Numbered from the stretch's first letter, positions 5,124 through 64,000 are shown. The stretch: DNA of 64,000 bases from an uncultured virus (IMG/VR IMGVR_UViG_3300032233_002452) (IMGVR_UViG_3300032233_002452), one strand, 5' to 3'. Notes: generated by a model from the sequence alone, not told the origin. Numbers and translations are program-made.

Positions 5124-5294
5124 TTATTCGCTCTGTGGTTCGTCAGCTGGTTCAGGTGTATTGCCTTCAGCAACCCACTTTAGGTATTTTTGGTAATCGG
5201 TGTTGTCTTCAGCCAAAGTAAATGATGATGTTGTGCCTAATATTTGTACAGCAACAACTTGATTTGTTCTAGGGTCTTTAATTAATTTATACAT
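5124..5294 (-). CDS. Small tail-fibre chaperone-like protein, paralog 2
   Basis: MYKL...[25 protein letters not shown] overlaps upstream TAA. Confidence 0.8.
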   Translation of the reverse strand: MYKLIKDPRTNQVVAVQILGTTSSFTLAEDNTDYQKYLKWVAEGNTPEPADEPQSE

Positions 5295-6400
5295 TATAAC
5301 TCCGATGAAAAATCGCTCCAAGCACTTGCGTTTGAACCGAATACATGAGCTCCAGGTCCAGTAATACCAGAAGCAACTACTGCTTGGATTGTGACAGTAT
5401 CAGCACAGGCAGCATTGATTCCCAAAAATGTCGGCGTTCCTTGGCCACCACCAAGACCTTCAATGACAAAGTGACTTAAAGAAGAATAACTATACGATGG
5501 TGCTGCCCGCATTGTTTGTTTTAAATAAGCAGTTGGAAAACAAGTGTTGCTTCCATTACCTGCAATAAAATGTCTTGCGTTGCCACCACCAGAAATACGT
5601 TGGTAATAACGTTGACACAATGAAAATTCTGTACCATATGAACGATGTTCGAAAGGAGTAGCTACTGCTCCTTCTTCCAGCTGTACACCTGTGATGTTAA
5701 AAGTTGCACCGGTCGTGGCAATTAAATCGACTTCACCGACTGCGCCTAATTTGCCGCCAGCATTCCAAGCATCGTTTGACACAGCCTTGTATGTGCTTCC
5801 GCAACCTAATGAAAAAATAATATTTATGCCATATGCGTTACCTGTGTACCAAGTGCCGGTTGTGGGAGCTGCAATGGTGACAGACTTTTTCTCCCAAGTG
5901 TTTGCGGCGTTGATGTTGTAGGTTGTCCAATAAGATAAATCAAAGGCGCTATTTCGAAAGCCTAAGCCAAATGCTCCTGTGACGCTTGAACGAACCCAAA
6001 AAGACACCGTAAACTGTTGAGCATTGGCCGTACCAAAAGACAAGTCAGAGATATTATGTGCTTCAACATATTGTTGAATACTAAAATAACTGCCAGCTGC
6101 AACAGCAGCACCAGTTGAAACTGTGGCAAGTATACTGTTAGCAAAACCTGGTGCCGAATTAGCAGCTGATTGTTGAATTGTTACTGTTGAACCAGTCCAA
6201 ACACGGTCTACATTCCAACGGTCAAGTGTGTATGCCGAACCTGCTGTAACACTAGCCCCTGAATTTCTCTGGTCAATAGCCATGGCTCCGTTAATAATTT
6301 TATTTCGGAAAGCAATCTGGTTACCTTCGTTCGTAAGCAGATTAGTGATTACGTTACCAGTAGGTGATACTGAGTTGACTTTAATTCTTGATAGTGGCAT
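5294..6400 (-). CDS. Putative receptor-binding/tail fibre protein, paralog 2
   Basis: RNKIINGAMAIDQR...ITGVQLEEG...CQRYY...SEL. Confidence 0.75.
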   Translation of the reverse strand: MPLSRIKVNSVSPTGNVITNLLTNEGNQIAFRNKIINGAMAIDQRNSGASVTAGSAYTLDRWNVDRVWTGSTVTIQQSAANSAPGFANSILATVSTGAAVAAGSYFSIQQYVEAHNISDLSFGTANAQQFTVSFWVRSSVTGAFGLGFRNSAFDLSYWTTYNINAANTWEKKSVTIAAPTTGTWYTGNAYGINIIFSLGCGSTYKAVSNDAWNAGGKLGAVGEVDLIATTGATFNITGVQLEEGAVATPFEHRSYGTEFSLCQRYYQRISGGGNARHFIAGNGSNTCFPTAYLKQTMRAAPSYSYSSLSHFVIEGLGGGQGTPTFLGINAACADTVTIQAVVASGITGPGAHVFGSNASAWSDFSSEL

Positions 6401-6577: not shown

Positions 6578-7654
6578 TTATAACTCCGCAGAAAATGCCA
6601 CGTTAGCAGATGTGCCATCTAATAATTTTGAACCAAAACCAGCAGTAGCACCTGAAATCGTAAAAACTACAGACGCCATTGAAACGGAAGCTGTTTGCAA
6701 ACCAACTACTGTAGGTACTCTGTTTGCACTATCTTGGCATAAAAAAGTATTTGCTGCTGAAGAAGTAAATGTTGGAACAGAACGCATAGTTACTGGAAAA
6801 GGAATGCCATAGGCACCCTCATTTGTAGCTGTGTTATATCCAAAACCAAGAACACCGTTACTTGTGCTACTAGCTTTATAATAATACTTTTGACACAATG
6901 CAAGCTCTGTTCCATATGGACGATAATCGAAAGGAGTGGCCTCAATTCCTTTTTCCAATTGTACGCCAGTAATATAGAAAGTAGCACCGTTAGTACTTAC
7001 AACTGAAGTTGCTCCTGTAGCTGAAGCATAATCTGCATTAGTCCATGAACCAGCAGCTGCACTATATGTTGAACCAACACCAATACCAAACCCAACTAAA
7101 ATTCCTGTGTTATTATCTGTTAACCAATTTCCAGTTGTTTCTCCTGGAATTGTTATAGTTTCATATTCCCAAGTATTTGCGTTATTGATGGTGTAGGTAT
7201 ATGGATATGAGCGAGTGCCGGTAACATTTTGAATTGTGCCTCCAAATGTACCAGTTAAACTTGAACGAACCCAAAATGACAAAGTTACTGGTGCTGCGTC
7301 TACAGTTCCCCATCCAAGGTCAGCGGTATTAAAACCTTCAATATTTTGCAACACACGAAAATAATCACCTGCGGCCAAAGAGTAAGCAGATGTAGAAGTT
7401 ATACCAAGATAGTTTGTAAAACCTACAGGAAGAGCAACGCTACCAGCATTTCTTTGCATGGAATATTTTGACGATGCTGACTGACTTGCACGCCAACGGT
7501 CAATCGAGAAATATCCTCCAGATGTAGGAGTCACGCTTGCACCAGCAGTCCTCTGGTCAATTCGCATATCTCCATTGATAATCCGATTTTTAAAACCGAA
7601 TGGTATACCGCTACTTTGGTTTTCTATTGCTTGCGTTGCTGTTTGAATTGGCAT
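6578..7654 (-). CDS. Putative receptor-binding/tail fibre protein, paralog 3
   Basis: KNRIINGDMRIDQR...ITGVQLEKG...CQKYY...AEL. Confidence 0.75.
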   Translation of the reverse strand: MPIQTATQAIENQSSGIPFGFKNRIINGDMRIDQRTAGASVTPTSGGYFSIDRWRASQSASSKYSMQRNAGSVALPVGFTNYLGITSTSAYSLAAGDYFRVLQNIEGFNTADLGWGTVDAAPVTLSFWVRSSLTGTFGGTIQNVTGTRSYPYTYTINNANTWEYETITIPGETTGNWLTDNNTGILVGFGIGVGSTYSAAAGSWTNADYASATGATSVVSTNGATFYITGVQLEKGIEATPFDYRPYGTELALCQKYYYKASSTSNGVLGFGYNTATNEGAYGIPFPVTMRSVPTFTSSAANTFLCQDSANRVPTVVGLQTASVSMASVVFTISGATAGFGSKLLDGTSANVAFSAEL

Positions 7655-7938: not shown

Positions 7939-9216
7939 TTATGCTACTAATTTGATTGAATAATTGCAGGCACCTTCAGCGCTTCCAGTTAACTGTTTTG
8001 AAGTACCTGCGCTTTGCCATGCAACAAATTCTAAGTAATCGTTTACCGATAGAGACACATAAGTTGAAAGTGATAAAGCTTCATAACCAGCTATTGATTG
8101 GTGATAATCGTAAACAACATATGTACCATTTTTCTTTAACATAAATTCAACAGAAAAACCTCCAGTTGAGTCTTGAATTCTTATTTTTCCGTGAACAAAG
8201 AAAACACCGGCAACTTGTGCAGTAAATCTTCCAGCAGAATATGATATACCAGAAGAACCTTGATTAACAAAATTTTGATCCCAATTTACAACAGCGTTTG
8301 TTGCTGTAGCTACAGTTTGTGCTGTGAACAATCGACCGGCCAATACTGGTTGACTTGGCATTGTAACACGATTTAGTGAATCAATAGAAATACTATTTAC
8401 ACCAGTTGTATTTGCAACACTAAATGATGTTACATTTGCAAGTGCAATTGTTGATGCTCGAACACTTAATGTATTTGCACCAACATCTAACTGGACTTGA
8501 CCAGCAGAAGTGGCACCAAAACGACCTACTTGTGAAGTGCCTGCTGAATTGAATAATGAAACGTTGCCTTTAAATGATGAGTTCTCAGCAGCCAATGTAA
8601 TCGTTGGATTACTAATATTTGGTTGAACCAAACTGGTACCAGCAGGAATTGCAGTAATAACAGATGAACTACGGAAGCCTAAGTGCTTGATGTGTACATT
8701 TGAACCACTTGGTGGTGCAGATGTGAATGTGATTGTTTGACCTGAAATTGTATAGTTGAGTGGTGCTCTTTGAACAATACCATCAACTGATACAGATAAT
8801 GTGTTTGCATCAGCAGGCGCTTCAGATAAAGCATACGTAGAAATTGCAGTATTACCGATATAGTTATCAACAGTAAACAAACGAATGTTGTTTGCTAATT
8901 TGTTGTATGATACTGAACCATCAGGTAAATAGACCTGAGCGCCAGAATCAAACTTACGGTAAATAACATAGATGTTGGAAGAACCAGTTGGAACTGCTTC
9001 TGTAAATATTAGTGATGTGCCGTTAACATCATAGGCAACGATTGGTTCTTGTTGAACGTTCTCAACGAAGACTTCAAGGTCAACCGCTTTCTGCACGAAA
9101 CGAGAAAGAGTAAATGTTGTTAGTGAACCGTTACCAGAGAATCTTTCCGCATCACGGGGTTCCGCAGCGGTTCTCATTGGGTCGAAAGGTAAATTATTAT
9201 TGCCGAGATATGCCAT
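7939..9216 (-). CDS. Tail fibre protein with two adaptor-like repeats and C1q-like C-terminal domain
   Basis: MAYLGN start; two V.V...Q....Y...G....FT.A.P.G repeats; GRFTAQVAGVF C1q-like motif. Confidence 0.7.
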   Translation of the reverse strand: MAYLGNNNLPFDPMRTAAEPRDAERFSGNGSLTTFTLSRFVQKAVDLEVFVENVQQEPIVAYDVNGTSLIFTEAVPTGSSNIYVIYRKFDSGAQVYLPDGSVSYNKLANNIRLFTVDNYIGNTAISTYALSEAPADANTLSVSVDGIVQRAPLNYTISGQTITFTSAPPSGSNVHIKHLGFRSSSVITAIPAGTSLVQPNISNPTITLAAENSSFKGNVSLFNSAGTSQVGRFGATSAGQVQLDVGANTLSVRASTIALANVTSFSVANTTGVNSISIDSLNRVTMPSQPVLAGRLFTAQTVATATNAVVNWDQNFVNQGSSGISYSAGRFTAQVAGVFFVHGKIRIQDSTGGFSVEFMLKKNGTYVVYDYHQSIAGYEALSLSTYVSLSVNDYLEFVAWQSAGTSKQLTGSAEGACNYSIKLVA

Positions 9217-9383: not shown

Positions 9384-10496
9384 TTATAACTCCGCTGATG
9401 CTGTTGCATGAAACTCATATGTTTGAGCTGCTACACCATTTGTTGATGTCTGAATATAACTAAGCAAAGAATTTGTGCCGTGGTTTTGTACACTAGATAC
9501 TGTAATTGTGGATCCAGAATTACTATAAACATTAATTCTGTCTGCGGTTCCTGTTTGTGAGTATAAAGTCACGGTTGGAGTTACCCTCATTGATACTGGC
9601 AATCTTGGATTAAATGCTTTTAATCTAGATAAAGTCCCGTCTGCTAAAGTCTCACAATATACGCTGCCTACAGATGTACTTGTACCAACAGCAACATCGG
9701 TATTATATGTTTTATAAAAATATCTCTGACACATTGCAAGTTCTTGTCCAAAGGGGCGGTATTCAAAACTTGAGGCCGTAGAACCTCTTTCCAATTGAAC
9801 ACCAGTAAATGCCCATGTAGCTCCAGTTGTAGCAACTACAGAAGTACCTCCTATTGCACCACGATAATCACCAGCAGCCCAAGCACCAGCAGTTCCTTGA
9901 AGTGTAGAGCCACAACCCATATCCCAATAAACAAGCATGCCAGTACCATTTGTTGCACCGACCCAAGTTCCTGATGTATCACCTGGAATTGTTATTGTTT
10001 CATACTCCCAAGTATTTGCTGAGTTTATGGTATATGTGAATGGGTAAGAACGGTCTTGTGCAGAATTTTGTATTGAACCACCAAAAGTACCAGTTAAACT
10101 AGAACGAACCCAAAATGATAATGTTATAGTTTTAGCGTTTACACTTCCCCAACCAAAATCGGCGGTGTTATAACCTTCAATTTTTTGAATTAATTGTGCT
10201 CTAGTGGAAGCACCTGATGCTGAGCCACTTGTTATTGTATAGAGTAAAGAAGCAGAAAAACCTACAGGTGAATTACTACTTTGAGCCAAAGTTCCTGTTG
10301 CAGAGCCGTTAGTAAAATATGAATATCTGTCAACAGAGTAAATTGTATTGTTGTTGGAAGCAACATTAGCTCCAGCATTCCTCTGGTCAACAGTCATGGC
10401 TCCGTTTATAATTCGATTTCTAAAATGAGTCCAACCAGACGATACTGTTGAGCCGTCATCGAATGCGATATTACTTCCGCTGTATGATACAGTCAT
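9384..10496 (-). CDS. Putative receptor-binding/tail fibre protein, paralog 4
   Basis: RNRIINGAMTVDQR...FTGVQLERG...CQRYF...AEL. Confidence 0.75.
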   Translation of the reverse strand: MTVSYSGSNIAFDDGSTVSSGWTHFRNRIINGAMTVDQRNAGANVASNNNTIYSVDRYSYFTNGSATGTLAQSSNSPVGFSASLLYTITSGSASGASTRAQLIQKIEGYNTADFGWGSVNAKTITLSFWVRSSLTGTFGGSIQNSAQDRSYPFTYTINSANTWEYETITIPGDTSGTWVGATNGTGMLVYWDMGCGSTLQGTAGAWAAGDYRGAIGGTSVVATTGATWAFTGVQLERGSTASSFEYRPFGQELAMCQRYFYKTYNTDVAVGTSTSVGSVYCETLADGTLSRLKAFNPRLPVSMRVTPTVTLYSQTGTADRINVYSNSGSTITVSSVQNHGTNSLLSYIQTSTNGVAAQTYEFHATASAEL

Positions 10497-44180: not shown

Positions 44181-44891
44181 TTAATCCCATAGCGTTTGAT
44201 AATACTTACCAAACAATCTAACACCATTACTTACACGTTCTTGGTGCTCACGTAGACCTTCCCAATCAACTTGCGCTTCTTTCAGCCAACGCAATGGTTT
44301 AGAGGTCTTACCCTCATCTTCTGGATGTTTAGAGAAATCAATTTCACCATGTTCAATCCAGAATTTACCCTCACCTTTATCATCATCACAAAGTTGTTCA
44401 AACGTCCAAATCAATTCATTTAGGAACCAATCATAACGTTTATGAACATCAGGTCCTTCAGAGGTGTCTTCACGATAGAAATCAAAAGTTGATTGTGAAT
44501 CATAATCTTCTGTTTGTGTAAATCTTAGGTGTTCTGGTACATCTTCAAGTTCGATATAACCTGAACCATGTTTCACTTCTTTGAGTTGTTTCAACATCGG
44601 CAGAATTATTGGAGAGAGGGTATAGTCCATAGACCAAACATCCCAATAATCAATCTTAACATACTCTATCGGTGGATGAACCTTATTCAGTACCCATTGA
44701 ATTGCTTTTGATACAGGTTCAACTTTATCGGATAACTTTTCAACCCATTTTGGATGGTCGATGTTTTTGTCCTCAGGAATATATTCCTTACTACGAGAAC
44801 ATTTAGACCAATCTGTCCAAAAGAATGCATAATCTATTAGTGTGTAAGGACTAATCCAATGATTACGAGGTTTACTAAGATAAACTTTCAT
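44181..44891 (-). CDS. Hypothetical phage protein
   Basis: 236 aa; D.WSMD.TL..II.PML..L, LFGKYY..LWD; ATGA overlap with fabF. Confidence 0.7.
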   Translation of the reverse strand: MKVYLSKPRNHWISPYTLIDYAFFWTDWSKCSRSKEYIPEDKNIDHPKWVEKLSDKVEPVSKAIQWVLNKVHPPIEYVKIDYWDVWSMDYTLSPIILPMLKQLKEVKHGSGYIELEDVPEHLRFTQTEDYDSQSTFDFYREDTSEGPDVHKRYDWFLNELIWTFEQLCDDDKGEGKFWIEHGEIDFSKHPEDEGKTSKPLRWLKEAQVDWEGLREHQERVSNGVRLFGKYYQTLWD

Positions 44892-46063
44892 TTATATTTT
44901 CCAAATGCTAAAACAATATTTGTTCCACCGAATGCGAATGAACTGTTCAATACAACATCAATTTCTTTTTCAAACTTCTTAGTTGGCAAATAGATTCCTT
45001 CGGGAATATTTTTATCGGGATTGTCTAGGTGCCAATTTGGAATAATTGTATCACATTCTATAGTGGCAAGGCAAGCGATTGTTTCAATTGCACCCGCTGC
45101 ACCTAAAGTGTGCCCATGCAACGCTTTAGTTGACGATACCGGTGGAGAAAGATTACCAAAAACTTCTTTGATAGATTCCAATTCAATCATGTCACCAACT
45201 GGTGTCGATGTACCGTGAGCATTGATATAACTTACCCGTGTCTTTGATATATCTTTAAGTACCTTTTCAAGTACCATAATTTCACCTTCTTTATTCGGCT
45301 TAGTCATAGATTCGGAACTACATGAGAATCCAAAACCTAAAATCTCAGCATAAATCTTTGCACCACGATTTAGTGCATGTTCAAGTTCTTCAAGTATGAA
45401 TATTGCCGAACCTTCGGCGATAACGATACCACTTCTATCAGCAGAGAATGGTTTAGATGCCTTTGTAGGTTCTTTACTATCCTTAGCGATAGCATTCATT
45501 GCTCGCCATGTTGCGACAGATAATTCATTCAAACAAGATTCTGCACCACCAGCTGCAATAGTATCAACCTCACCGAGAGCGATATATCGATATGCTTCAC
45601 CGATAGCAACTGAAGCAGAAGAACATGCCGCTGAGTATGTGAAAACAGGACCTTTAATCTTCTCTTTGTATGCAATAAAGTTTGTTGCATTATTAGGCAT
45701 GGAACACACCAAGGCGGTAGGTCTAGTGCGTTTAATTCTCTTTAGGTCGGAATATGATTGTTCAAGTGCAAGAGCACCACCGCCATATCCAACACCCAAC
45801 ATAACGCCTTCAACATCGGTGCCAGAATCCTTGTGTGCTTGTTGATAAGCTGCCCACGCTAAACGTGAGAATCTATCTGTAACACTTAAATCGGTAGAGT
45901 CCATATTATCAACGTCAACCTTTACTCTCGCAAGGTTAACACCGAATGGTTCATAAAACTCTACACCAGATTCACCGTTAAACAAAGCTTTCTTCACTTC
46001 GTCATATGATGCACCAATTGGTGTTACACAACCAATTCCTGTAATTACAACTCTACGTTTCAT
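44888..46063 (-). CDS. fabF: Beta-ketoacyl-ACP synthase (FabF/FabB-type)
   Basis: RRVVITGIG, catalytic ACSS, INAHGTSTP.GD, STKALHGHTLGAAG, NSSFAFGG.N. Confidence 0.92.
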   Translation of the reverse strand: MKRRVVITGIGCVTPIGASYDEVKKALFNGESGVEFYEPFGVNLARVKVDVDNMDSTDLSVTDRFSRLAWAAYQQAHKDSGTDVEGVMLGVGYGGGALALEQSYSDLKRIKRTRPTALVCSMPNNATNFIAYKEKIKGPVFTYSAACSSASVAIGEAYRYIALGEVDTIAAGGAESCLNELSVATWRAMNAIAKDSKEPTKASKPFSADRSGIVIAEGSAIFILEELEHALNRGAKIYAEILGFGFSCSSESMTKPNKEGEIMVLEKVLKDISKTRVSYINAHGTSTPVGDMIELESIKEVFGNLSPPVSSTKALHGHTLGAAGAIETIACLATIECDTIIPNWHLDNPDKNIPEGIYLPTKKFEKEIDVVLNSSFAFGGTNIVLAFGKYK

Positions 46064-46811
46064 TTTTCTTAATCAATCTAATAAATTGAGCAGCGAGGTC
46101 GAACTCCCACCACTTCACCTTCTCATCGAAACGACCTGGATATTTGTGGTGATTATTGTGCCATTCACCACCGACCCAGCCGGCAAATAAATCATTCTTT
46201 GATGTGTCTGGAGTTTCAAAGTTTCGATATGTAAATCTATGACCAAGATGGCAAAACACATTTACATATCCAACGGCAAGAAACGCCAATGCAACACCAA
46301 CATTATATGTCAAAGCAAGTCTATAGTCAATAAGCAATAAGGCAATATAGAAGATACCAATAATCGCAATATACCAATCATGTGTAAATTTAATCCACTT
46401 ATCACGTAGACCATTTGCATACAGTAAACTGGCACCTTTCATATTCCAACGAAAGAACATTGTGTTAAATTTACCTTTTTCCGGATTATGCGGGTCTAAA
46501 TCGGTATCTGAATATCGATGATGCGTTCTGTGAGCAATCGTATATCCTACTGGTGAACCAAAAGTTACCAGACATGCTGAAAAGGTAATGAAGATGTGCC
46601 AGAATTTATTGAGTTTGTAAGAACCGTGTGAAAAATAACGGTGTAATCCTGCATGATGGCAGAAATGTAGTAGGAAAACGAACCAACCTAGAATCGCAAA
46701 CCAGTACCAAGTTTGATACTGCAAAAGCAAAACTGGCAATGCCATTGAAGCAAATGCCAGTTGTAACAGAATTATGTTTTGTGAATTTTTATCGTTGGCA
46801 CGAAATAACAT
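46053..46811 (-). CDS. Membrane-bound fatty acid desaturase (delta-9-like)
   Basis: His boxes HRYFSH, HRTHH..SDT..DPH.P, GEWHNNHH; WWEFD; hydrophobic helices; start set by TAATG overlap. Confidence 0.9.
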   Translation of the reverse strand: MLFRANDKNSQNIILLQLAFASMALPVLLLQYQTWYWFAILGWFVFLLHFCHHAGLHRYFSHGSYKLNKFWHIFITFSACLVTFGSPVGYTIAHRTHHRYSDTDLDPHNPEKGKFNTMFFRWNMKGASLLYANGLRDKWIKFTHDWYIAIIGIFYIALLLIDYRLALTYNVGVALAFLAVGYVNVFCHLGHRFTYRNFETPDTSKNDLFAGWVGGEWHNNHHKYPGRFDEKVKWWEFDLAAQFIRLIKKNET

Positions 46812-46903
46812 TAAAATGGCCATCCATAGGTTAGTATTTCAAGGGTTGATACAAACAGAACACTAAGAAGTATGTAAATCAAATCCTTCTTAGTCATCTT
46901 CAT
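46811..46903 (-). CDS. 30-aa single-pass membrane peptide
   Basis: Hand-translated MKMTKKDLIYILLSVLFVSTLEILTYGWPF; fills the ACP-desaturase gap; TAA overlaps desaturase ATG. Confidence 0.5.
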   Translation of the reverse strand: MKMTKKDLIYILLSVLFVSTLEILTYGWPF

Positions 46904-46907
46904 ATCA

Positions 46908-47171
46908 TCACTTGATTGAGTTGAGGTATCCTGCATATATTGAATCAAAGATATCTTTAAGATTTTTTGGAGCATCTGCATCGCCAAATTTGAATTTCAT
47001 TTCATCTTCAACGTCAAATAAAAATTCAAGTATTTGAAGAGAATCCAATTTCTCATTTAATTTCTGTAAGTCTTCCAATGGTGCTTCTTCATCAATTTCC
47101 ATCAAGTTAACATTAAACTTGGATTGGAACATATCTGACACTTGTTGTTTAAGGTCTTCTCTAGTTAGCAT
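46908..47171 (-). CDS. Acyl carrier protein
   Basis: Acidic 87 aa, LDSL phosphopantetheine site followed by ..LE....VEDE.K.KF. Confidence 0.85.
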   Translation of the reverse strand: MLTREDLKQQVSDMFQSKFNVNLMEIDEEAPLEDLQKLNEKLDSLQILEFLFDVEDEMKFKFGDADAPKNLKDIFDSIYAGYLNSIK

Positions 47172-47172
47172 A

Positions 47173-47469
47173 TTATTTCCTAAGTGCAATCGCTATGATT
47201 AAATCATCTTCATGTGAAAGTGTGAGCACGTATGAACCACTTAATACGTTACCCACATCTTCAACTTGTGGTGCCATACTTTTTGGAAATGAAATGCGAA
47301 TGTCTCGGTATTGAATTTGTTTACCTTCTGCTTTGACAATCGATTCGTAACATGCCCAAAATTTTGCCACATCTTTTATGTTGGAATAATTGGTATTGAA
47401 TCTACGATTATATCTATTCAACCAATCAGATTTGAATCTAGATATTTTTGTAATGTCAGTACCAATCAT
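47173..47469 (-). CDS. acpS: AcpS-type 4'-phosphopantetheinyl transferase (compact, divergent)
   Basis: MIGTDI..ISRF, AKFWACYES.VKA (cf. FAAKEA..KA), LTLSHE...AIAL; AAGGA SD. Confidence 0.75.
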   Translation of the reverse strand: MIGTDITKISRFKSDWLNRYNRRFNTNYSNIKDVAKFWACYESIVKAEGKQIQYRDIRISFPKSMAPQVEDVGNVLSGSYVLTLSHEDDLIIAIALRK

Positions 47470-47483
47470 AATAATCCTTGAAA

Positions 47484-47832
47484 GTGGTGATTCTTCTGTT
47501 ACGAGGTGAACCACCGAAACCCTAAGCGGCGATTAGGCTGCTAATGCGAACTGTGAGTCGTTTGCTTTTACTTTTTTGCTTCTACGACCGGGTTACCCCA
47601 ATCCTAATGGCTTTCACATTGCCAAGTTGTCCACTTCTGTACTTCTTGCCCTGTCGAAACTATTCATCCCCATCATAAAGACTTTTTATAATCCAGAACA
47701 TATAATTTATCCAAATTAATATGCCCCACATATAAACCCAATGCCATTCACCTAACATAAAAGTCCTTATGGTGGAGATGGGGGGATTCGCACCCCCGTC
47801 CAGAACACGTTTCTAGTTGCTTCATACAACCA
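47484..47832 (-). ncRNA. ssrA: Circularly permuted (two-piece) tmRNA, tag peptide ANDSQFALAA (outer ends approximate)
   Basis: Minus-strand order: T-arm GGGGG-TGCGAAT-CCCCC + CATCTCCACCA (ends 47770), intervening segment, GGGGATG 5' acceptor strand (47671) with G3:U pair, tag frame 47565-47533. Confidence 0.9.
47660..47758 (-). CDS. Putative 32-aa Trp-rich membrane peptide starting in the tmRNA intervening segment
   Basis: MLGEWHWVYMWGILIWINYMFWIIKSLYDGDE, preceded by TAAGGA. Confidence 0.4.
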   Translation of the reverse strand: MLGEWHWVYMWGILIWINYMFWIIKSLYDGDE

Positions 47833-54270: not shown

Positions 54271-54840
54271 TTATAGAATGTGGTCTGCTACACCTAGTTC
54301 GACTAACTCTTTTGCCGTTAACCAAATGTCACTTGGTGGCAAAAGCTTAGACTTGATTGTGCGGACATCCAGACTAGTGGCGTCACGCAAAATATTTACC
54401 ATTCTTTGATTACAATTTTCATGTTCACGTGCTTGCGCTTTTATATCGTGGTACTTACCTTCTGGTGAATCAGAAAATTGATGGCACATAATGCCTGTGT
54501 TGGGTGCAATGTATCTGTTTCCCTTTTGACCTGATGCAAAAATAAGAAACGCTGCGGACATAATAGAACCAATTCCAATAGTATGAATCGGATGTGTACT
54601 CATCTTCATTATGTCAATCAGGCCAAATGCCTGATATAAATCTCCACCAGGACTGTTCACGTATAGGTGTAAAGTTTTTGGTTTCGACTGGTCTAAATTT
54701 TCATAGACAATCCATTGAATCGCATCACGAATGTTGTCTTCATCAACATCACCCGTAAGGAAATGGATGTGTTTGTCTAAAAATTTTAATTCTATCTTTT
54801 CTTGTACTGGACAAAAGTCCAAATCTTTATTCTCTACCAT
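54271..54840 (-). CDS. clpP: ClpP-family serine protease
   Basis: LYVNSPGG, MSAAFLIFASG..G.R, IMCHQ, D.WLTA.E..ELG.AD. Confidence 0.88.
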   Translation of the reverse strand: MVENKDLDFCPVQEKIELKFLDKHIHFLTGDVDEDNIRDAIQWIVYENLDQSKPKTLHLYVNSPGGDLYQAFGLIDIMKMSTHPIHTIGIGSIMSAAFLIFASGQKGNRYIAPNTGIMCHQFSDSPEGKYHDIKAQAREHENCNQRMVNILRDATSLDVRTIKSKLLPPSDIWLTAKELVELGVADHIL

Positions 54841-55771
54841 TTCGTTTTTCCCATTCGTAGGCTGTTGCGATAATAGAGAATATATCATGTTTAGGGCGGT
54901 AATTCAATAGATTCTTGGCAAGAGTAACATCGGCAACTAACCTGTCGGGGTCACCCATTCTGCGTTCGGCAATACTGTAATTTACCTTTATGTTTTGGGT
55001 AGATTCGATTAATTTAATGATTTCTAAGATAGAATACCCGGTGCCTGTGCCTAAGTTGACAATGAAAGAATCATTATCATCCAAGTGGTCAATAGCTAGA
55101 AGGTGTGCTGAGGATACATCACTTACGTGAACATAGTCTCGGACGCACGTACCATCATCGGTACTATAGTCATTACCATAAACTCTGAATGTATTTAGAT
55201 TCCGAAAAATGCTAGGAATCAGATGTGTCTCAGGTTCATGGTTTTCACCAATATCACCCTCAGGGTCAGCACCGGCAAGGTTGAAATATCTGAAAATACC
55301 ATACTTAATTCCAGACTCCATAATCATGTTTTCACAAGCGATTTTGGTAGAGCCATAAACTGAATTATCTGGTGTTGTACATTCGTCTTCTTGTAAAGGC
55401 ATGTAACCGGCTAGATAAACTGCAGCAGTTGAACTAAACAAGATTTTTGGCACCTTGTTTTTCTTCATTGCATTTAAAAGAATCGCAGTACCACCAACGT
55501 TCACTTCATGGAATTCTGTTGGGTCTTTCATTGATTCACCAACCTCAATACGTGAGGCGCAATGAATTACCAGGTCGTACCTATGTCGAGCTAGAACTTC
55601 ATTCACCCTAGTACGGTCACGAATATCACCAGGATAAAAAACGTGGTTGTATTTGTGAGTTGGTATTTTTTGGTCAAACCCAACTACAGTAAAACCTGCT
55701 ATATGCAGGTCTTTACTTAACTGACTACCGAGATACCCGGAGCTACCTGTAACAAGTGCTGTTTTTTCCAT
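54827..55771 (-). CDS. galE: UDP-glucose 4-epimerase
   Basis: LVTGSSGYLGS, VGES, FSSTAAVY, YGSTK, RYFNLAGA, DGTCVRDYVHV. Confidence 0.9.
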   Translation of the reverse strand: MEKTALVTGSSGYLGSQLSKDLHIAGFTVVGFDQKIPTHKYNHVFYPGDIRDRTRVNEVLARHRYDLVIHCASRIEVGESMKDPTEFHEVNVGGTAILLNAMKKNKVPKILFSSTAAVYLAGYMPLQEDECTTPDNSVYGSTKIACENMIMESGIKYGIFRYFNLAGADPEGDIGENHEPETHLIPSIFRNLNTFRVYGNDYSTDDGTCVRDYVHVSDVSSAHLLAIDHLDDNDSFIVNLGTGTGYSILEIIKLIESTQNIKVNYSIAERRMGDPDRLVADVTLAKNLLNYRPKHDIFSIIATAYEWEKRNGRE

Positions 55772-56460
55772 GGAAATTCACTATTATATTTTTGAAATTG
55801 AATTGCATTACCTTGGTCAAAGAATTCTTTACTAACAGAATTCGGATTACCATCTAAACGATAACACATTGTATGAGCATTCGTGCATCCAAAATTAGGA
55901 AAGTTGTTTTTTAACGCACCAAAGAATTGTCTATCGGCGCCCCATTGGCCGTACCAAGCATGCCCAATCCTAACAGCAACATCACGGCGTATGGCAAAAC
56001 TTGATGTATCAATGTGAAATACTTCATTGTTAAAAAATACAGGCCATTTTCCCAACGATTCACAATTGTCATCACAGAGGTAGTTACCATTTTTATCATA
56101 TATTTTCCTTAAAGAATATGCCCAATCATTACCTTCTTGAATTTTATTCACCAACTTTTCAACGTGACGTGGTTCATACCAGTTGTCTTCGTCAAGGTAA
56201 CAAATAATATCCGCATTTACCAGAAACGAACAGGCAGCATAGACACGGTGACCGTACCAATTCTTACCTACGTTTTCTTCCAATTCAATCATTCTGGTTT
56301 TAGTAGAACCAACTAGAATTTCTCTAGCTTTAGGTTCATACTGACAACCATCAATGAAAACGTAATGTGTCAAATCTTTATAAGTTTGTTTATCAACAGA
56401 ATCGACACAATCCTTCAGTAACGAACTACCAATTGTAGGAGTTACAACAGCAACTTTCAT
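55717..56460 (-). CDS. Glycosyltransferase family 2
   Basis: VVTPT, CVDSV..QTY, ICYLDEDNW (DxD). Confidence 0.85.
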   Translation of the reverse strand: MKVAVVTPTIGSSLLKDCVDSVDKQTYKDLTHYVFIDGCQYEPKAREILVGSTKTRMIELEENVGKNWYGHRVYAACSFLVNADIICYLDEDNWYEPRHVEKLVNKIQEGNDWAYSLRKIYDKNGNYLCDDNCESLGKWPVFFNNEVFHIDTSSFAIRRDVAVRIGHAWYGQWGADRQFFGALKNNFPNFGCTNAHTMCYRLDGNPNSVSKEFFDQGNAIQFQKYNSEFPWKKQHLLQVAPGISVVS

Positions 56461-56711
56461 TTCTTCACCAAAGGGTTTACAGTATCATCCCAGCCCATTT
56501 CTTGTGAAATTTTTGACAACTTCTCAAGTGCTGCCAAACGAGCATCATCTTCTTTTTTAATTTCTTCTGCTGCTTGAATCACTTGTTCATGCAGATTCTC
56601 ATCTTTCAAATCACGTTGAAAAATTGCGTCCCAACGGTTCACATATTCCTCTTGTGAAATGCTGAATGGTCGTGGCGAACTTCCTTTGCCGCCATCACTC
56701 ATCTTACTCAT
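56457..56711 (-). CDS. Hypothetical protein
   Basis: GGKGSSPRP...Y..RWDAIF motif. Confidence 0.6.
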   Translation of the reverse strand: MSKMSDGGKGSSPRPFSISQEEYVNRWDAIFQRDLKDENLHEQVIQAAEEIKKEDDARLAALEKLSKISQEMGWDDTVNPLVKK

Positions 56712-57467
56712 TTATAATTTCCTCTCAATGTCTTCTTCTGTACAATAATCACCATATTGTATTTCAACAATACGGCAAGGCTCATCGTATGGGTTACACA
56801 ATTGATGCCATTCACCCAATGGAATATCTAGTTTGTCGTGCTTCATCATATTAACGGATGGCAATCTATAACCACTCAACATTGCTCTATGTACAACGCA
56901 TTTACCTTCAGATACAATCCAATACTCATGTCGTCCACTATGTCTTTGAAAACTTAGTGAAGCTTCGGGGTCAACAGTCAACTCTTTAACTTTCATTCCC
57001 GGTACTTCATGTAGTATACGATAATAACCCCATGTGCGTGTGGTTTTAGGATGTGTCCATTGGTCGAGAATCCAAGAACTTGAATTCATCTTATGGTCGC
57101 CACCAATACCGAACTTGAATTCTACTCCAGCAACTCTCATCTCGGGAATATTTTCTTTTGTCCGGTCTCCACCATTGGCAAAAATTATTTCTGCTTTTGG
57201 GTATTTGGCCTTCGCATATTCTAACACATCACATGCTGTATTGTCAAGGTCATTAATATTATATACCTCATCAACCATGCGTAGATTGTAAATAATTCCG
57301 GCACGGTCATTCCAACGCATGAAAGGTCGACCTTTTTTACGGGTCAACCAATCATCAGAATTTACACCAACAATAAGGTAATCACCAAGAGCTTTTGCTC
57401 GGTGAAACATTTCAATATGACCGGAGTGTAATGGGTCAAACCCACCAGATACGACCACGACTTTCAT
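56712..57467 (-). CDS. Cytidylyltransferase-like domain fused to cupin (mannose-6-phosphate isomerase type II-like)
   Basis: SGGFDPLHSGH, VGVNSD.WL.RKKG, FANGGDR; R.WG.Y, LS.QRH..R.E.W, EIQYG..C.EEDIER. Confidence 0.85.
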   Translation of the reverse strand: MKVVVVSGGFDPLHSGHIEMFHRAKALGDYLIVGVNSDDWLTRKKGRPFMRWNDRAGIIYNLRMVDEVYNINDLDNTACDVLEYAKAKYPKAEIIFANGGDRTKENIPEMRVAGVEFKFGIGGDHKMNSSSWILDQWTHPKTTRTWGYYRILHEVPGMKVKELTVDPEASLSFQRHSGRHEYWIVSEGKCVVHRAMLSGYRLPSVNMMKHDKLDIPLGEWHQLCNPYDEPCRIVEIQYGDYCTEEDIERKL

Positions 57468-63244: not shown

Positions 63245-64000
63245 TTACTTGCTTGTTGCCCGATAGGTGCCGTCCCAATCTTTTGGTGCGGTACCACCTT
63301 TAATTCTGTCATACATTACATCATAATAGTCACTCATTTCTGGAGTGGCATTCTTACACAATTCAATAACACCACAAGCTTTAGACCATTGACCTCTGTA
63401 GTAAAAGTCAAGGAAGGTTTTGTGTTGTTCCGTTTCATGTGCTAGTGTAAATATTTTTACACCTTCTTTTTTACCTTTAACTGCGATACAATCCAGTTCA
63501 AAGATATCATATTCATCTTTTACCAATTCTGCGGTTCTTTGACCTAAGACCATCTTTACAGCATAAGGTTTAGATTGTCCCTCTAAACGTGATGCAAGGT
63601 TTACGCCGTCACCTAGGCATGTGTAGTCAAATCGTTGGTCACTACCCATGTTACCTACAACCACGACCGCACTATTAATACCAAGACCCATACCGAATGC
63701 AGGAATGCCTTCAGCGGTTATCTCTTTGTTGAAATCTTCTAAACTTTCCATCATCTGCAATGCAGTCTTAACTGCCATGTGTGCATGTTGTGGTTCGTCT
63801 AGTGGTGCATTCCAAAATGCCATCTGAGCATCACCAATATATTTGTCTAGTGTACCATTATTGTCAATGATTTTTTTCGTCATTGCCGTCATGTAACGGT
63901 TCATAATCTTTGTTAGGCCTTGTACATCTCTACCATAGTGTTCTGAGATTGTGGTAAAACCACGAACATCGGTAAACATAATTGACAACTCACGTTCATC
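63245..64000 (-). CDS. Class III adenylate/guanylate cyclase, C-terminal part (starts beyond window end)
   Basis: MFTDVRGFT..SE, DKYIGDA.MAFW, VGNMGS..RFDYT.LGD.VNLASRLEG, VKGK. Confidence 0.92.
   Translation of the reverse strand, partial: DERELSIMFTDVRGFTTISEHYGRDVQGLTKIMNRYMTAMTKKIIDNNGTLDKYIGDAQMAFWNAPLDEPQHAHMAVKTALQMMESLEDFNKEITAEGIPAFGMGLGINSAVVVVGNMGSDQRFDYTCLGDGVNLASRLEGQSKPYAVKMVLGQRTAELVKDEYDIFELDCIAVKGKKEGVKIFTLAHETEQHKTFLDFYYRGQWSKACGVIELCKNATPEMSDYYDVMYDRIKGGTAPKDWDGTYRATSK

Follow-up and report, generated by a model that had tools for sequence, protein, structure and literature searches.

Introduction

Cyanophages encode the desaturases vFAD-I and vFAD-II, which the relevant passages of Roitman et al. 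(PMC5776448) describe as active Delta9 lipid desaturases. In addition, one sentence of Zaragoza-Solas et al. 2020 (PMC7029224) states that freshwater pelagimyophages PMP-D carry 'fabF, stearoyl-CoA desaturase'. A different arrangement is found in the JamABC terminal-alkyne cassette and in the cay and pgn polyyne clusters, where the gene of a dedicated acyl carrier protein (ACP) adjoins those of membrane desaturases whose substrate is the ACP-bound chain; according to the passages of PMC8341276 and PMC9828172 on these systems, an acyl-AMP/ACP ligase loads the ACP and a thioesterase releases the product. Here we analyse 64,000 nt of the uncultured virus IMGVR_UViG_3300032233_002452 (the window; positions are counted from its first letter). 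At 44888-47469 on the minus strand it contains five same-strand open reading frames (ORFs) in series, in the order phosphopantetheinyl transferase (PPTase), ACP, a 30-codon ORF, membrane desaturase and ketosynthase (KS). We propose, with a rough probability of 55%, that this phage auxiliary operon would run an ACP-centred branch of the host type II fatty-acid synthesis (FAS II) on a phage carrier, giving unsaturated acyl chains.

The phage proteins share folds and catalytic residues with bacterial AcpS, AcpP and FabF/FabB, and the KS is about 40% identical to FabF of many phyla. They differ from the parts of bacterial FAS II in being shorter, divergent and below curated cutoffs, in forming a phage-only clade and in the absence of FabD, FabG, FabZ and FabI. 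Moreover, the phage genes are joined to a membrane desaturase, a pairing that is rare in cells (ACP at 2 and KS at 3 of the 80 best cellular loci). As in the vFAD-I/II case, at least as presented in the sections of PMC5776448 on these enzymes, a Delta9/SCD-like membrane desaturase is an auxiliary gene of a T4-like aquatic phage. Unlike vFAD-I/II, the desaturase of the window is embedded between ACP and KS genes and shows no sequence kinship to them: none of the cyanophage records among 50,697 deposited phage records matched it at E<=1e-5. The term ACP occurs 0 times in the text of PMC5776448. With JamABC and the polyyne clusters the locus shares an ACP encoded beside the desaturase, and several desaturases stand in series in related viral loci; the likeness is one of gene layout. 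In contrast to these systems, as the cited passages portray them, no ligase or thioesterase was found in the phage modules, and a KS stands in the place of the ligase.

The fabF and desaturase of PMP-D probably represent this module or a sister module, as two of our related loci (L018 and L022) look pelagimyophage-like by an alpha-type transfer-messenger RNA (tmRNA) or by the order ACP-KS-desaturase. The sentence on PMP-D in PMC7029224 gives no ACP, PPTase, operon structure, clade analysis or function. A text search of the paper on Methylophilales phage Melnitz (PMC9004378) returned zero occurrences of desaturase, acyl carrier and fabF. Neither a phage PPTase-ACP-desaturase-KS operon nor tandem desaturase arrays in phages were found in the full-text literature, a search with most subscription journals and supplements outside its scope. 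A preliminary description of this locus had named no characterised phage cluster of such composition. That remains true of 'characterised', but fabF with stearoyl-CoA desaturase had already been noted in the sentence of PMC7029224.

Results

The encoded proteins

The ACP appears to be the centre of the module. Its D43-S44 pair, with the serine of the DSL motif, is invariant in 14 relatives, 9 of which match the PP-binding family, three above the cutoff of 20.8 bits. A profile of these 14 sequences, one of them a canonical ACP from L002, finds 2n50 as the best ACP structure (E 2e-13) and 121 ACP sequences of the PDB at E<=0.1. The AlphaFold2 (AF2) model has a pLDDT of 84.9 and places a helix at 44-58, so that helix II begins at Ser44. 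In a Foldseek search with this model the top matches are all ACP entries or ACP-bearing complexes (query TM-score, TMq, up to 0.76; best E 6e-3). The predicted protein is therefore an acidic four-helix ACP with Asp-Ser-Leu at the N-terminus of helix II. Family profile and model together give good support to a divergent, dedicated carrier kept beside the KS.

The KS matches both Pfam KS domains (120.9 and 98.2 bits), and its Cys147, His283, His318 and Lys313 do not vary among 28 sequences. Among solved structures T. thermophilus FabF 1j3n matches best (E 5e-76), and the distances of the protein to solved FabF and to solved FabB are about the same. Its close relatives make up a block of 36 protein clusters of 46-95% identity, all metagenomic and some on contigs of 110-166 kb; the next matches, ordinary FabF of many phyla (~40% identity), score 290 bits, down from 366. 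In a quick FastTree of 78 KS rows, made without bootstrap, 47 rows form one group with SH-like support 100 and a stem of 0.59. By these comparisons the KS is assigned to the elongating FabF/FabB type and to a phage-only clade. Against the deposited phage records, from which the window's own record may be absent, the KS gave only matches below 40% identity, mostly fragments or unannotated and one filed as a Salmonella genome, while the ACP gave no match there, nor did a DNA megablast of the region against phage records. A viral scan with the single KS protein returned nothing, and the related loci were found by the alignment-based scan. Metagenome scans with an alignment of close KS sequences and with P0004, one of the 70-95% identical relatives, confirmed no locus.

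The desaturase scores 57.9 bits against Pfam FA_desaturase (gathering score 29.7). Its residues 16-248 align with SCD1 of human and mouse (4zyo, E 2e-11; 4ymk), every His box being in register, and nine metal-binding His (three His boxes and one more His) are invariant in 35 sequences. The protein is clearly classified by these matches as a short SCD-type (Delta9-family) membrane fatty-acid desaturase. It is about 250 aa long; the median ORF is 254 aa in viral loci as compared to 312 aa in cellular relatives. The best of 567 cellular matches, taken from one genome per species, are 24-36% identical to it, and tblastn against the 50,697 phage records gave three weak matches (24.6% identity).

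For the PPTase, 10 of 10 family members match Pfam ACPS at E<=0.01, and two relatives lie above the Pfam cutoff (53.5 bits in L156 and 45.6 bits in G005). The family profile matches H. pylori AcpS 5xuk over its full length (E 4e-5) with the N-terminal motif aligned. The AF2 model (pLDDT 95.2) has the AcpS alpha/beta fold expected of a protein of ~100-130 aa. Foldseek returned 59 PDB matches at E<=0.001; among the matches listed all are AcpS or fungal FAS PPT domains (TMq 0.65-0.79). In AcpS, an N-terminal Asp and a mid-helix Glu and Lys bind Mg2+ and CoA. The residues G3, D5, E42 and K46 are invariant in 10 PPTase sequences. The predicted identity as an AcpS-type PPTase is thus well supported by profile and model despite a Pfam score below the cutoff.

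The preliminary description had named these four proteins from their motifs. All four assignments hold, and the motifs proved to be invariant (ACP Ser44 in 14, the nine desaturase His in 35 and the KS Cys-His-His-Lys in 28 sequences). The profile searches that it called for gave a mixed outcome: the desaturase is above the cutoff and both KS domains are matched, and the ACP and PPTase taken alone fall below cutoffs, though family and structure matches agree. The span that it gave for the five ORFs agrees exactly with ours.

The module in related viral loci

A profile scan of IMG/VR with the KS alignment gave 25 KS-anchored loci (KS 45-54% identity); several are near-identical copies and they represent about ten lineages. 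With PPT for the PPTase and DES for the desaturase, the layout is PPT-ACP-DES-KS in 6 of the 25, ACP-DES-KS in 7, ACP-KS in 5, ACP-KS-DES in 2 and ACP-DESx3-KS in 1, and in 4 the upstream end is cut off. The ACP lies upstream of the KS in all 21 loci that extend that far. A dedicated ACP is encoded beside one or more membrane desaturases in the window, in 16 of the 25 loci and in two further loci, L002 (DES-DES-ACP) and L094 (DESx3-PPT-ACP), where the two are linked without a KS. On these gene arrangements, the ACP is the apparent hub of the module, always beside the KS and paired with desaturases also where the KS is absent, and the core consists of ACP and KS, to which the desaturase (one to three copies) and the PPTase are accessory. 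More specifically, the PPTase adjoins the module in only 6 of the 21 upstream-complete loci and is found elsewhere in the genome in one more case. A PPTase profile search of five related records gave no match, an empty answer that carries no weight. The preliminary description had seen a dedicated, divergent ACP with its own PPTase; the first part holds, and the PPTase is accessory.

The stop and start codons within ACP-DES-KS overlap as ATGA in 5 of 6 relatives inspected. The flanks of the related loci consist of the same T4-like genes as in the window, with an exonuclease, a regulator and a denV-like gene upstream and a cell-wall hydrolase, a gp33-like gene, gp59 and gp32 downstream. Near the module of L010 (8596-11040) and L016 (3363-4145 and 8853-9953) we noticed genes for NAD synthase, an IF-1-like protein, Fe/Mn superoxide dismutase and an Fe-S assembly protein.

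Misassembly had been named among the outcomes that would overturn the finding; it was rejected, as was host contamination. The GC content of the cluster (0.372) matches that of the window (0.378). A 2,951-nt contig from an independent study spans 44625-47552 with the same gene order at ~91% identity (264 differences, one gap). The cluster block of the KS is phage-only, and there is no close cellular source for the desaturase. The near-identical record G001 was used in place of the window's own assembly.

Pathway enzymes absent from the module

Domain scans of the window revealed no FabD, FabG, FabZ, FabI, acyltransferase, thioesterase or acyl ligase (AMP-binding). The single short-chain dehydrogenase/reductase (SDR) of the window is a sugar epimerase within a glycosyltransferase and cytidylyltransferase group. 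Pfam scans of the neighbours in related loci did not find the same pathway enzymes next to the module, nor any thioesterase or rubredoxin. Five related viral records, 55-85% complete, contained no match to FabD or FabZ/A, and five viral records, all of them fragments, had no acyl-AMP/acyl-ACP ligase (0/5). The other pathway enzymes are absent, and therefore the phage must rely on those of the host, as the preliminary description had also concluded when it found no reductase, dehydratase, acyltransferase or thioesterase.

These observations establish the gene identities, the intactness of the catalytic residues, the tight coupling of the genes (see below), their conservation within a phage clade and the absence of the remaining pathway enzymes.

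Tandem desaturase arrays

A scan anchored on the desaturase showed that at least 594 viral stretches encode relatives. We compared the 79 best viral with the 80 best cellular desaturase loci, counting ACP and KS within 5 kb of the desaturase; these are raw counts that include duplicates, and the viral set overlaps the KS-anchored set. Two or more desaturases were present in 34/79 viral and 1/80 cellular loci, and three or more in 10/79 viral loci. A KS was present in 14/79 viral and 3/80 cellular loci, an ACP in 13/79 and 2/80, and a PPTase in 7/79 and 0/80.

The longest arrays differ in their partners. L106 has a KS followed by five desaturases, L098 five desaturases in series, and L025 and L095 three with ACP and KS. 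L156 combines six desaturases with the above-cutoff PPTase, a KS of very different lineage and an ACP just outside the locus. Arrays of three to six short SCD-type paralogues occur also in L138, L147, L155, L158 and other loci. The nine His are kept in 22 of 22 array paralogues checked. As a separate observation, some desaturase arrays have KS, PPTase, ACP, radical SAM, ATP-grasp or Rieske neighbours. In L025 the KS is followed (8149-8781) by a PF10118 'predicted metal-dependent hydrolase' (119.9 bits), which could be a release or tailoring enzyme.

Operon layout and genomic setting

Table 1. Features of the lipid operon, its immediate neighbours and other genes of the window mentioned in the text
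Feature	Position	Strand	Properties
AcpS-type PPTase	47173-47469	-	98 aa, pI 9.33
ACP	46908-47171	-	87 aa, pI 4.24, Ser44 within K-L-D-S-L motif
Hydrophobic ORF	46811-46903	-	30 codons, unverified
SCD-type membrane desaturase	46053-46823, alternative start Met5 at 46811	-	256 aa
FabF/FabB-type KS	44888-46063	-	391 aa
Permuted two-piece tmRNA gene	47533-47831	-	Rfam and ARAGORN
Hypothetical protein phrog_11543 (orf236)	44181-44891	-	PHROG match E 5.7e-42
ORF with adenylate/guanylate cyclase catalytic domain	63245-63988	-	247 aa, PF00211, 73.2 bits
ClpP-type protease domain protein, then sugar-nucleotide epimerase, family 2 glycosyltransferase, cytidylyltransferase/mannose-6-phosphate isomerase fusion	54271-57467	-	
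Four paralogous tail-fibre-like genes	1721-2848, 5294-6400, 6578-7654, 9384-10496	-	match C-terminal part of phrog_4492

Every junction in the operon is either overlapping or at most 4 nt apart, and the five ORFs (Table 1) are tightly coupled as an operon. PPTase and ACP meet at TAAtATG. The ACP is followed by TGAtgatATG, so that the 30-codon ORF starts 4 nt past the ACP stop, and the stop of this ORF overlaps Met5 of the desaturase as TAATG. Desaturase and KS overlap by 11 nt. The ATG starts of PPTase and ACP are preceded by the boxes AAGGA and AGGAAA, respectively. Longer starts, GTG 47514 for the PPTase and TTG 47189 for the ACP, were considered and rejected as over-extensions, given these boxes upstream of the ATG starts. 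For the PPTase, the GTG start would moreover run into the tmRNA gene, database relatives are only 98-101 aa long, and the contig of a relative has a 1-base gap at 47480.

The 30-codon ORF has a grand average of hydropathy (GRAVY) of 0.87 and is positioned for coupled translation. It is possible, but unverified, that it encodes a single-pass membrane peptide. The ORF occupies an 84-nt spacer that is absent from relatives, and a search of the ORFs of 27 loci gave no homologue. None of the 6 relatives inspected has space for it, as their desaturase start overlaps or directly adjoins the ACP stop. The possibility that it is a split-off N-terminus of the desaturase was rejected, since desaturases of relatives have equal length and N-terminus without the ORF. 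The peptide, counted as a fifth gene in the preliminary description, thus finds no support.

The KS stop overlaps the start of the phrog_11543 protein (ATGA). This protein directly follows the KS in L004-8, L021, L024 and L027 and is absent there in L010, L016, L017 and L018; its relatives in the Atlas are viral hypothetical clusters only. Its membership in the module is doubtful because it belongs to a virus-only family that is often absent from the module.

The window comes from a T4-type myovirus, in agreement with the preliminary description: it encodes gp32, gp59, RNase H, DsbA, a gp2-like end protector, and baseplate and tail genes. Its closest isolates in a comparison of the gp6 baseplate protein are Methylophilales phage Melnitz (42.5%) and Pelagibacter phage HTVC008M (40.6%), and by these protein similarities we class the phage as Melnitz/pelagimyophage-like. 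The stretch occurs in sequencing runs that carry the labels metagenome, lake water, freshwater and aquaculture; none of the runs listed is an RNA run, which bears on expression neither way.

The PPTase is immediately preceded, on the same strand, by the tmRNA gene (Rfam RF04321, 124 bits, gathering score 47; beta_tmRNA RF01850, 106.6 bits, gathering score 84), for which ARAGORN gives the tag ANDSQFALAA. Of 5 relatives checked, 4 (L004, L015, L025 and L018) likewise have a permuted tmRNA immediately before the module, that of L018 being of the alpha type. The tmRNA gene is the probable head of a transcription unit that includes the lipid operon. Genes for tmRNA are known from Melnitz-like phages; the passages of PMC9004378 on this gene describe a two-piece tmRNA for Melnitz, located just behind an early promoter. 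In the window the T4 late motif occurs at structural genes only. A promoter scan gave 28 sites as compared to 24.6 +/- 5.9 in shuffled sequence and is uninformative. The location of the lipid operon behind the tmRNA in the replication-gene block, together with the restriction of the late motif to structural genes and the early promoter upstream of the tmRNA in Melnitz, suggests that the operon is expressed early or middle. As an observation apart from this, the best tmRNA clan match is of the betaproteobacterial type (RF01850), which may hint at the class of the host.

Other auxiliary genes of the window are listed in Table 1. The block at 54271-57467 likely consists of surface-sugar auxiliary genes, and the four tail-fibre-like paralogues may be alternative receptor-binding tips.

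Discussion

The product and use of the module are what we infer from its gene content. The mechanism that we propose follows the biochemistry of the protein families. The AcpS-type PPTase would move phosphopantetheine from CoA to Ser44 of the ACP, and the host malonyl-CoA:ACP transacylase (FabD) would load malonate on the phage ACP. The acyl chain on Cys147 of the KS would be condensed with malonyl-ACP, by which chains would be moved onto, or extended on, the phage carrier, and host FabG, FabZ and FabI would complete each cycle. The SCD-type di-iron desaturase would insert a cis double bond with O2 and host electron donors, probably on the ACP-bound chain, and the product would be taken up by host acyltransferases. 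Overall, the infected cell would early on gain acyl chains that are more numerous, longer or more unsaturated, with membrane lipids as the simplest use. A pathway partly insulated from host FAS II and making one specific product, as the preliminary description suggested, would go beyond these results.

The substrate of the desaturase deserves attention. Gene linkage suggests that it probably acts on an ACP-bound chain: this is the more likely case because the ACP-DES-KS order is fixed, the genes are coupled by ATGA overlaps and ACP-desaturase pairs occur without a KS. A complex prediction for desaturase and ACP scored 0.15 (mark 0.32), which counts neither for nor against this.

Several observations weigh against the proposed ACP-centred branch of host fatty-acid synthesis. 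Characterised relatives of the desaturase use acyl-CoA (SCD1) or lipids (cyanophage vFADs) and not acyl-ACP. The PPTase matches Pfam ACPS (PF01648) over its full length, but with 22.6 bits it stays below the gathering score of 25. The ACP itself has no Pfam match (PF00550), and its match to NCBIfam ACP models is sub-threshold (E 9e-5, 22 bits vs a cutoff of 71). The KS scores 342.8 bits against TIGR03150 fabF (cutoff 493.75) and 275.1 bits against FabB (cutoff 630); with a score that misses the FabF equivalog cutoff, it may accept substrates other than those of FabF. Since most related loci lack the PPTase, its role may be taken by the host AcpS. Finally, membrane fluidity alone hardly accounts for arrays of three to six desaturases, which point to a more elaborate product.

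The last point leads to a reading that we hold to be rather unlikely, namely that the phage ACP is a thiotemplate on which KS and desaturase(s) would build an unusual unsaturated compound (a polyene, an alkyne/polyyne-like lipid, a signal or a toxin) and not bulk membrane lipid. In its widest form, to which we give the same small weight, aquatic phages would carry undescribed thiotemplated lipid-tailoring clusters, consisting of a PPTase-primed ACP, a KS replacing the ligase and one to six SCD-type desaturases acting serially on the ACP-bound chain. They would make a polyunsaturated or acetylenic compound that has its own role (toxin, signal, anti-grazer or anti-defence agent), and the window would represent the variant with one desaturase. 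A layout with a dedicated ACP and its own PPTase beside membrane desaturases is indeed that of the ACP-dependent alkyne/polyyne systems, as outlined in the relevant parts of PMC8341276 and PMC9828172. Related viral modules have 3-6 tandem desaturases (L025/L095, L106, L156), all paralogues checked have their His intact, and multi-copy desaturases are far more frequent in viral than in cellular loci (34/79 vs 1/80). However, the window has only one desaturase, an acyl-AMP/acyl-ACP ligase is missing from the five fragment records and a thioesterase or rubredoxin from the neighbour Pfam scans, and the benefit of such a compound for a lytic phage is not evident.

Equally improbable, in our estimate, is that the genes are independent auxiliary genes that merely share a hypervariable island. 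The desaturase would then be a Delta9 acyl-lipid or acyl-CoA desaturase like the vFADs, and KS and ACP would top up host FAS II, with no channelling between them. The alignment of the desaturase with the acyl-CoA desaturase SCD1 is in line with this, as is the action of cyanophage vFADs as lipid desaturases on their own, as told in the vFAD passages of PMC5776448. Moreover, 66 of the 79 best viral desaturase loci have no ACP and 65 no KS within 5 kb, one KS subclade lacks the desaturase, and variation is known at the site between exonuclease/tmRNA and gp33/gp59. It is difficult to reconcile mere co-residence with the fixed ACP-DES-KS order and the ATGA overlaps in 5/6 relatives inspected; ACP-desaturase pairs occur without a KS as well, and L156 has the combination with a KS of a very different lineage.

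Over-production of FabF is reported to be toxic to E. coli, and an ACP+KS core without any cycle-completing enzyme, in a module that is probably early and lies behind the tmRNA, could in principle serve as a host-takeover device in which surplus KS and foreign ACP tie up malonyl groups, FabD or acyl chains and thereby block or redirect host fatty-acid synthesis, but we consider this very improbable, as the catalytic residues are all kept over long divergence and a PPTase and an O2-dependent desaturase add nothing to a mere blocker.

Regarding the biology of these viruses, lipid genes rank with the least understood of the phage auxiliary genes, and so far only single desaturases have been tested. 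The module described here occurs widely among uncultured T4-like phages that infect streamlined bacteria in fresh water and was previously mentioned only in passing. Related multi-desaturase arrays hint at unknown lipid products. If the ACP-centred branch that we propose is true, phages would run part of fatty-acid synthesis on their own scaffold instead of adding one enzyme.

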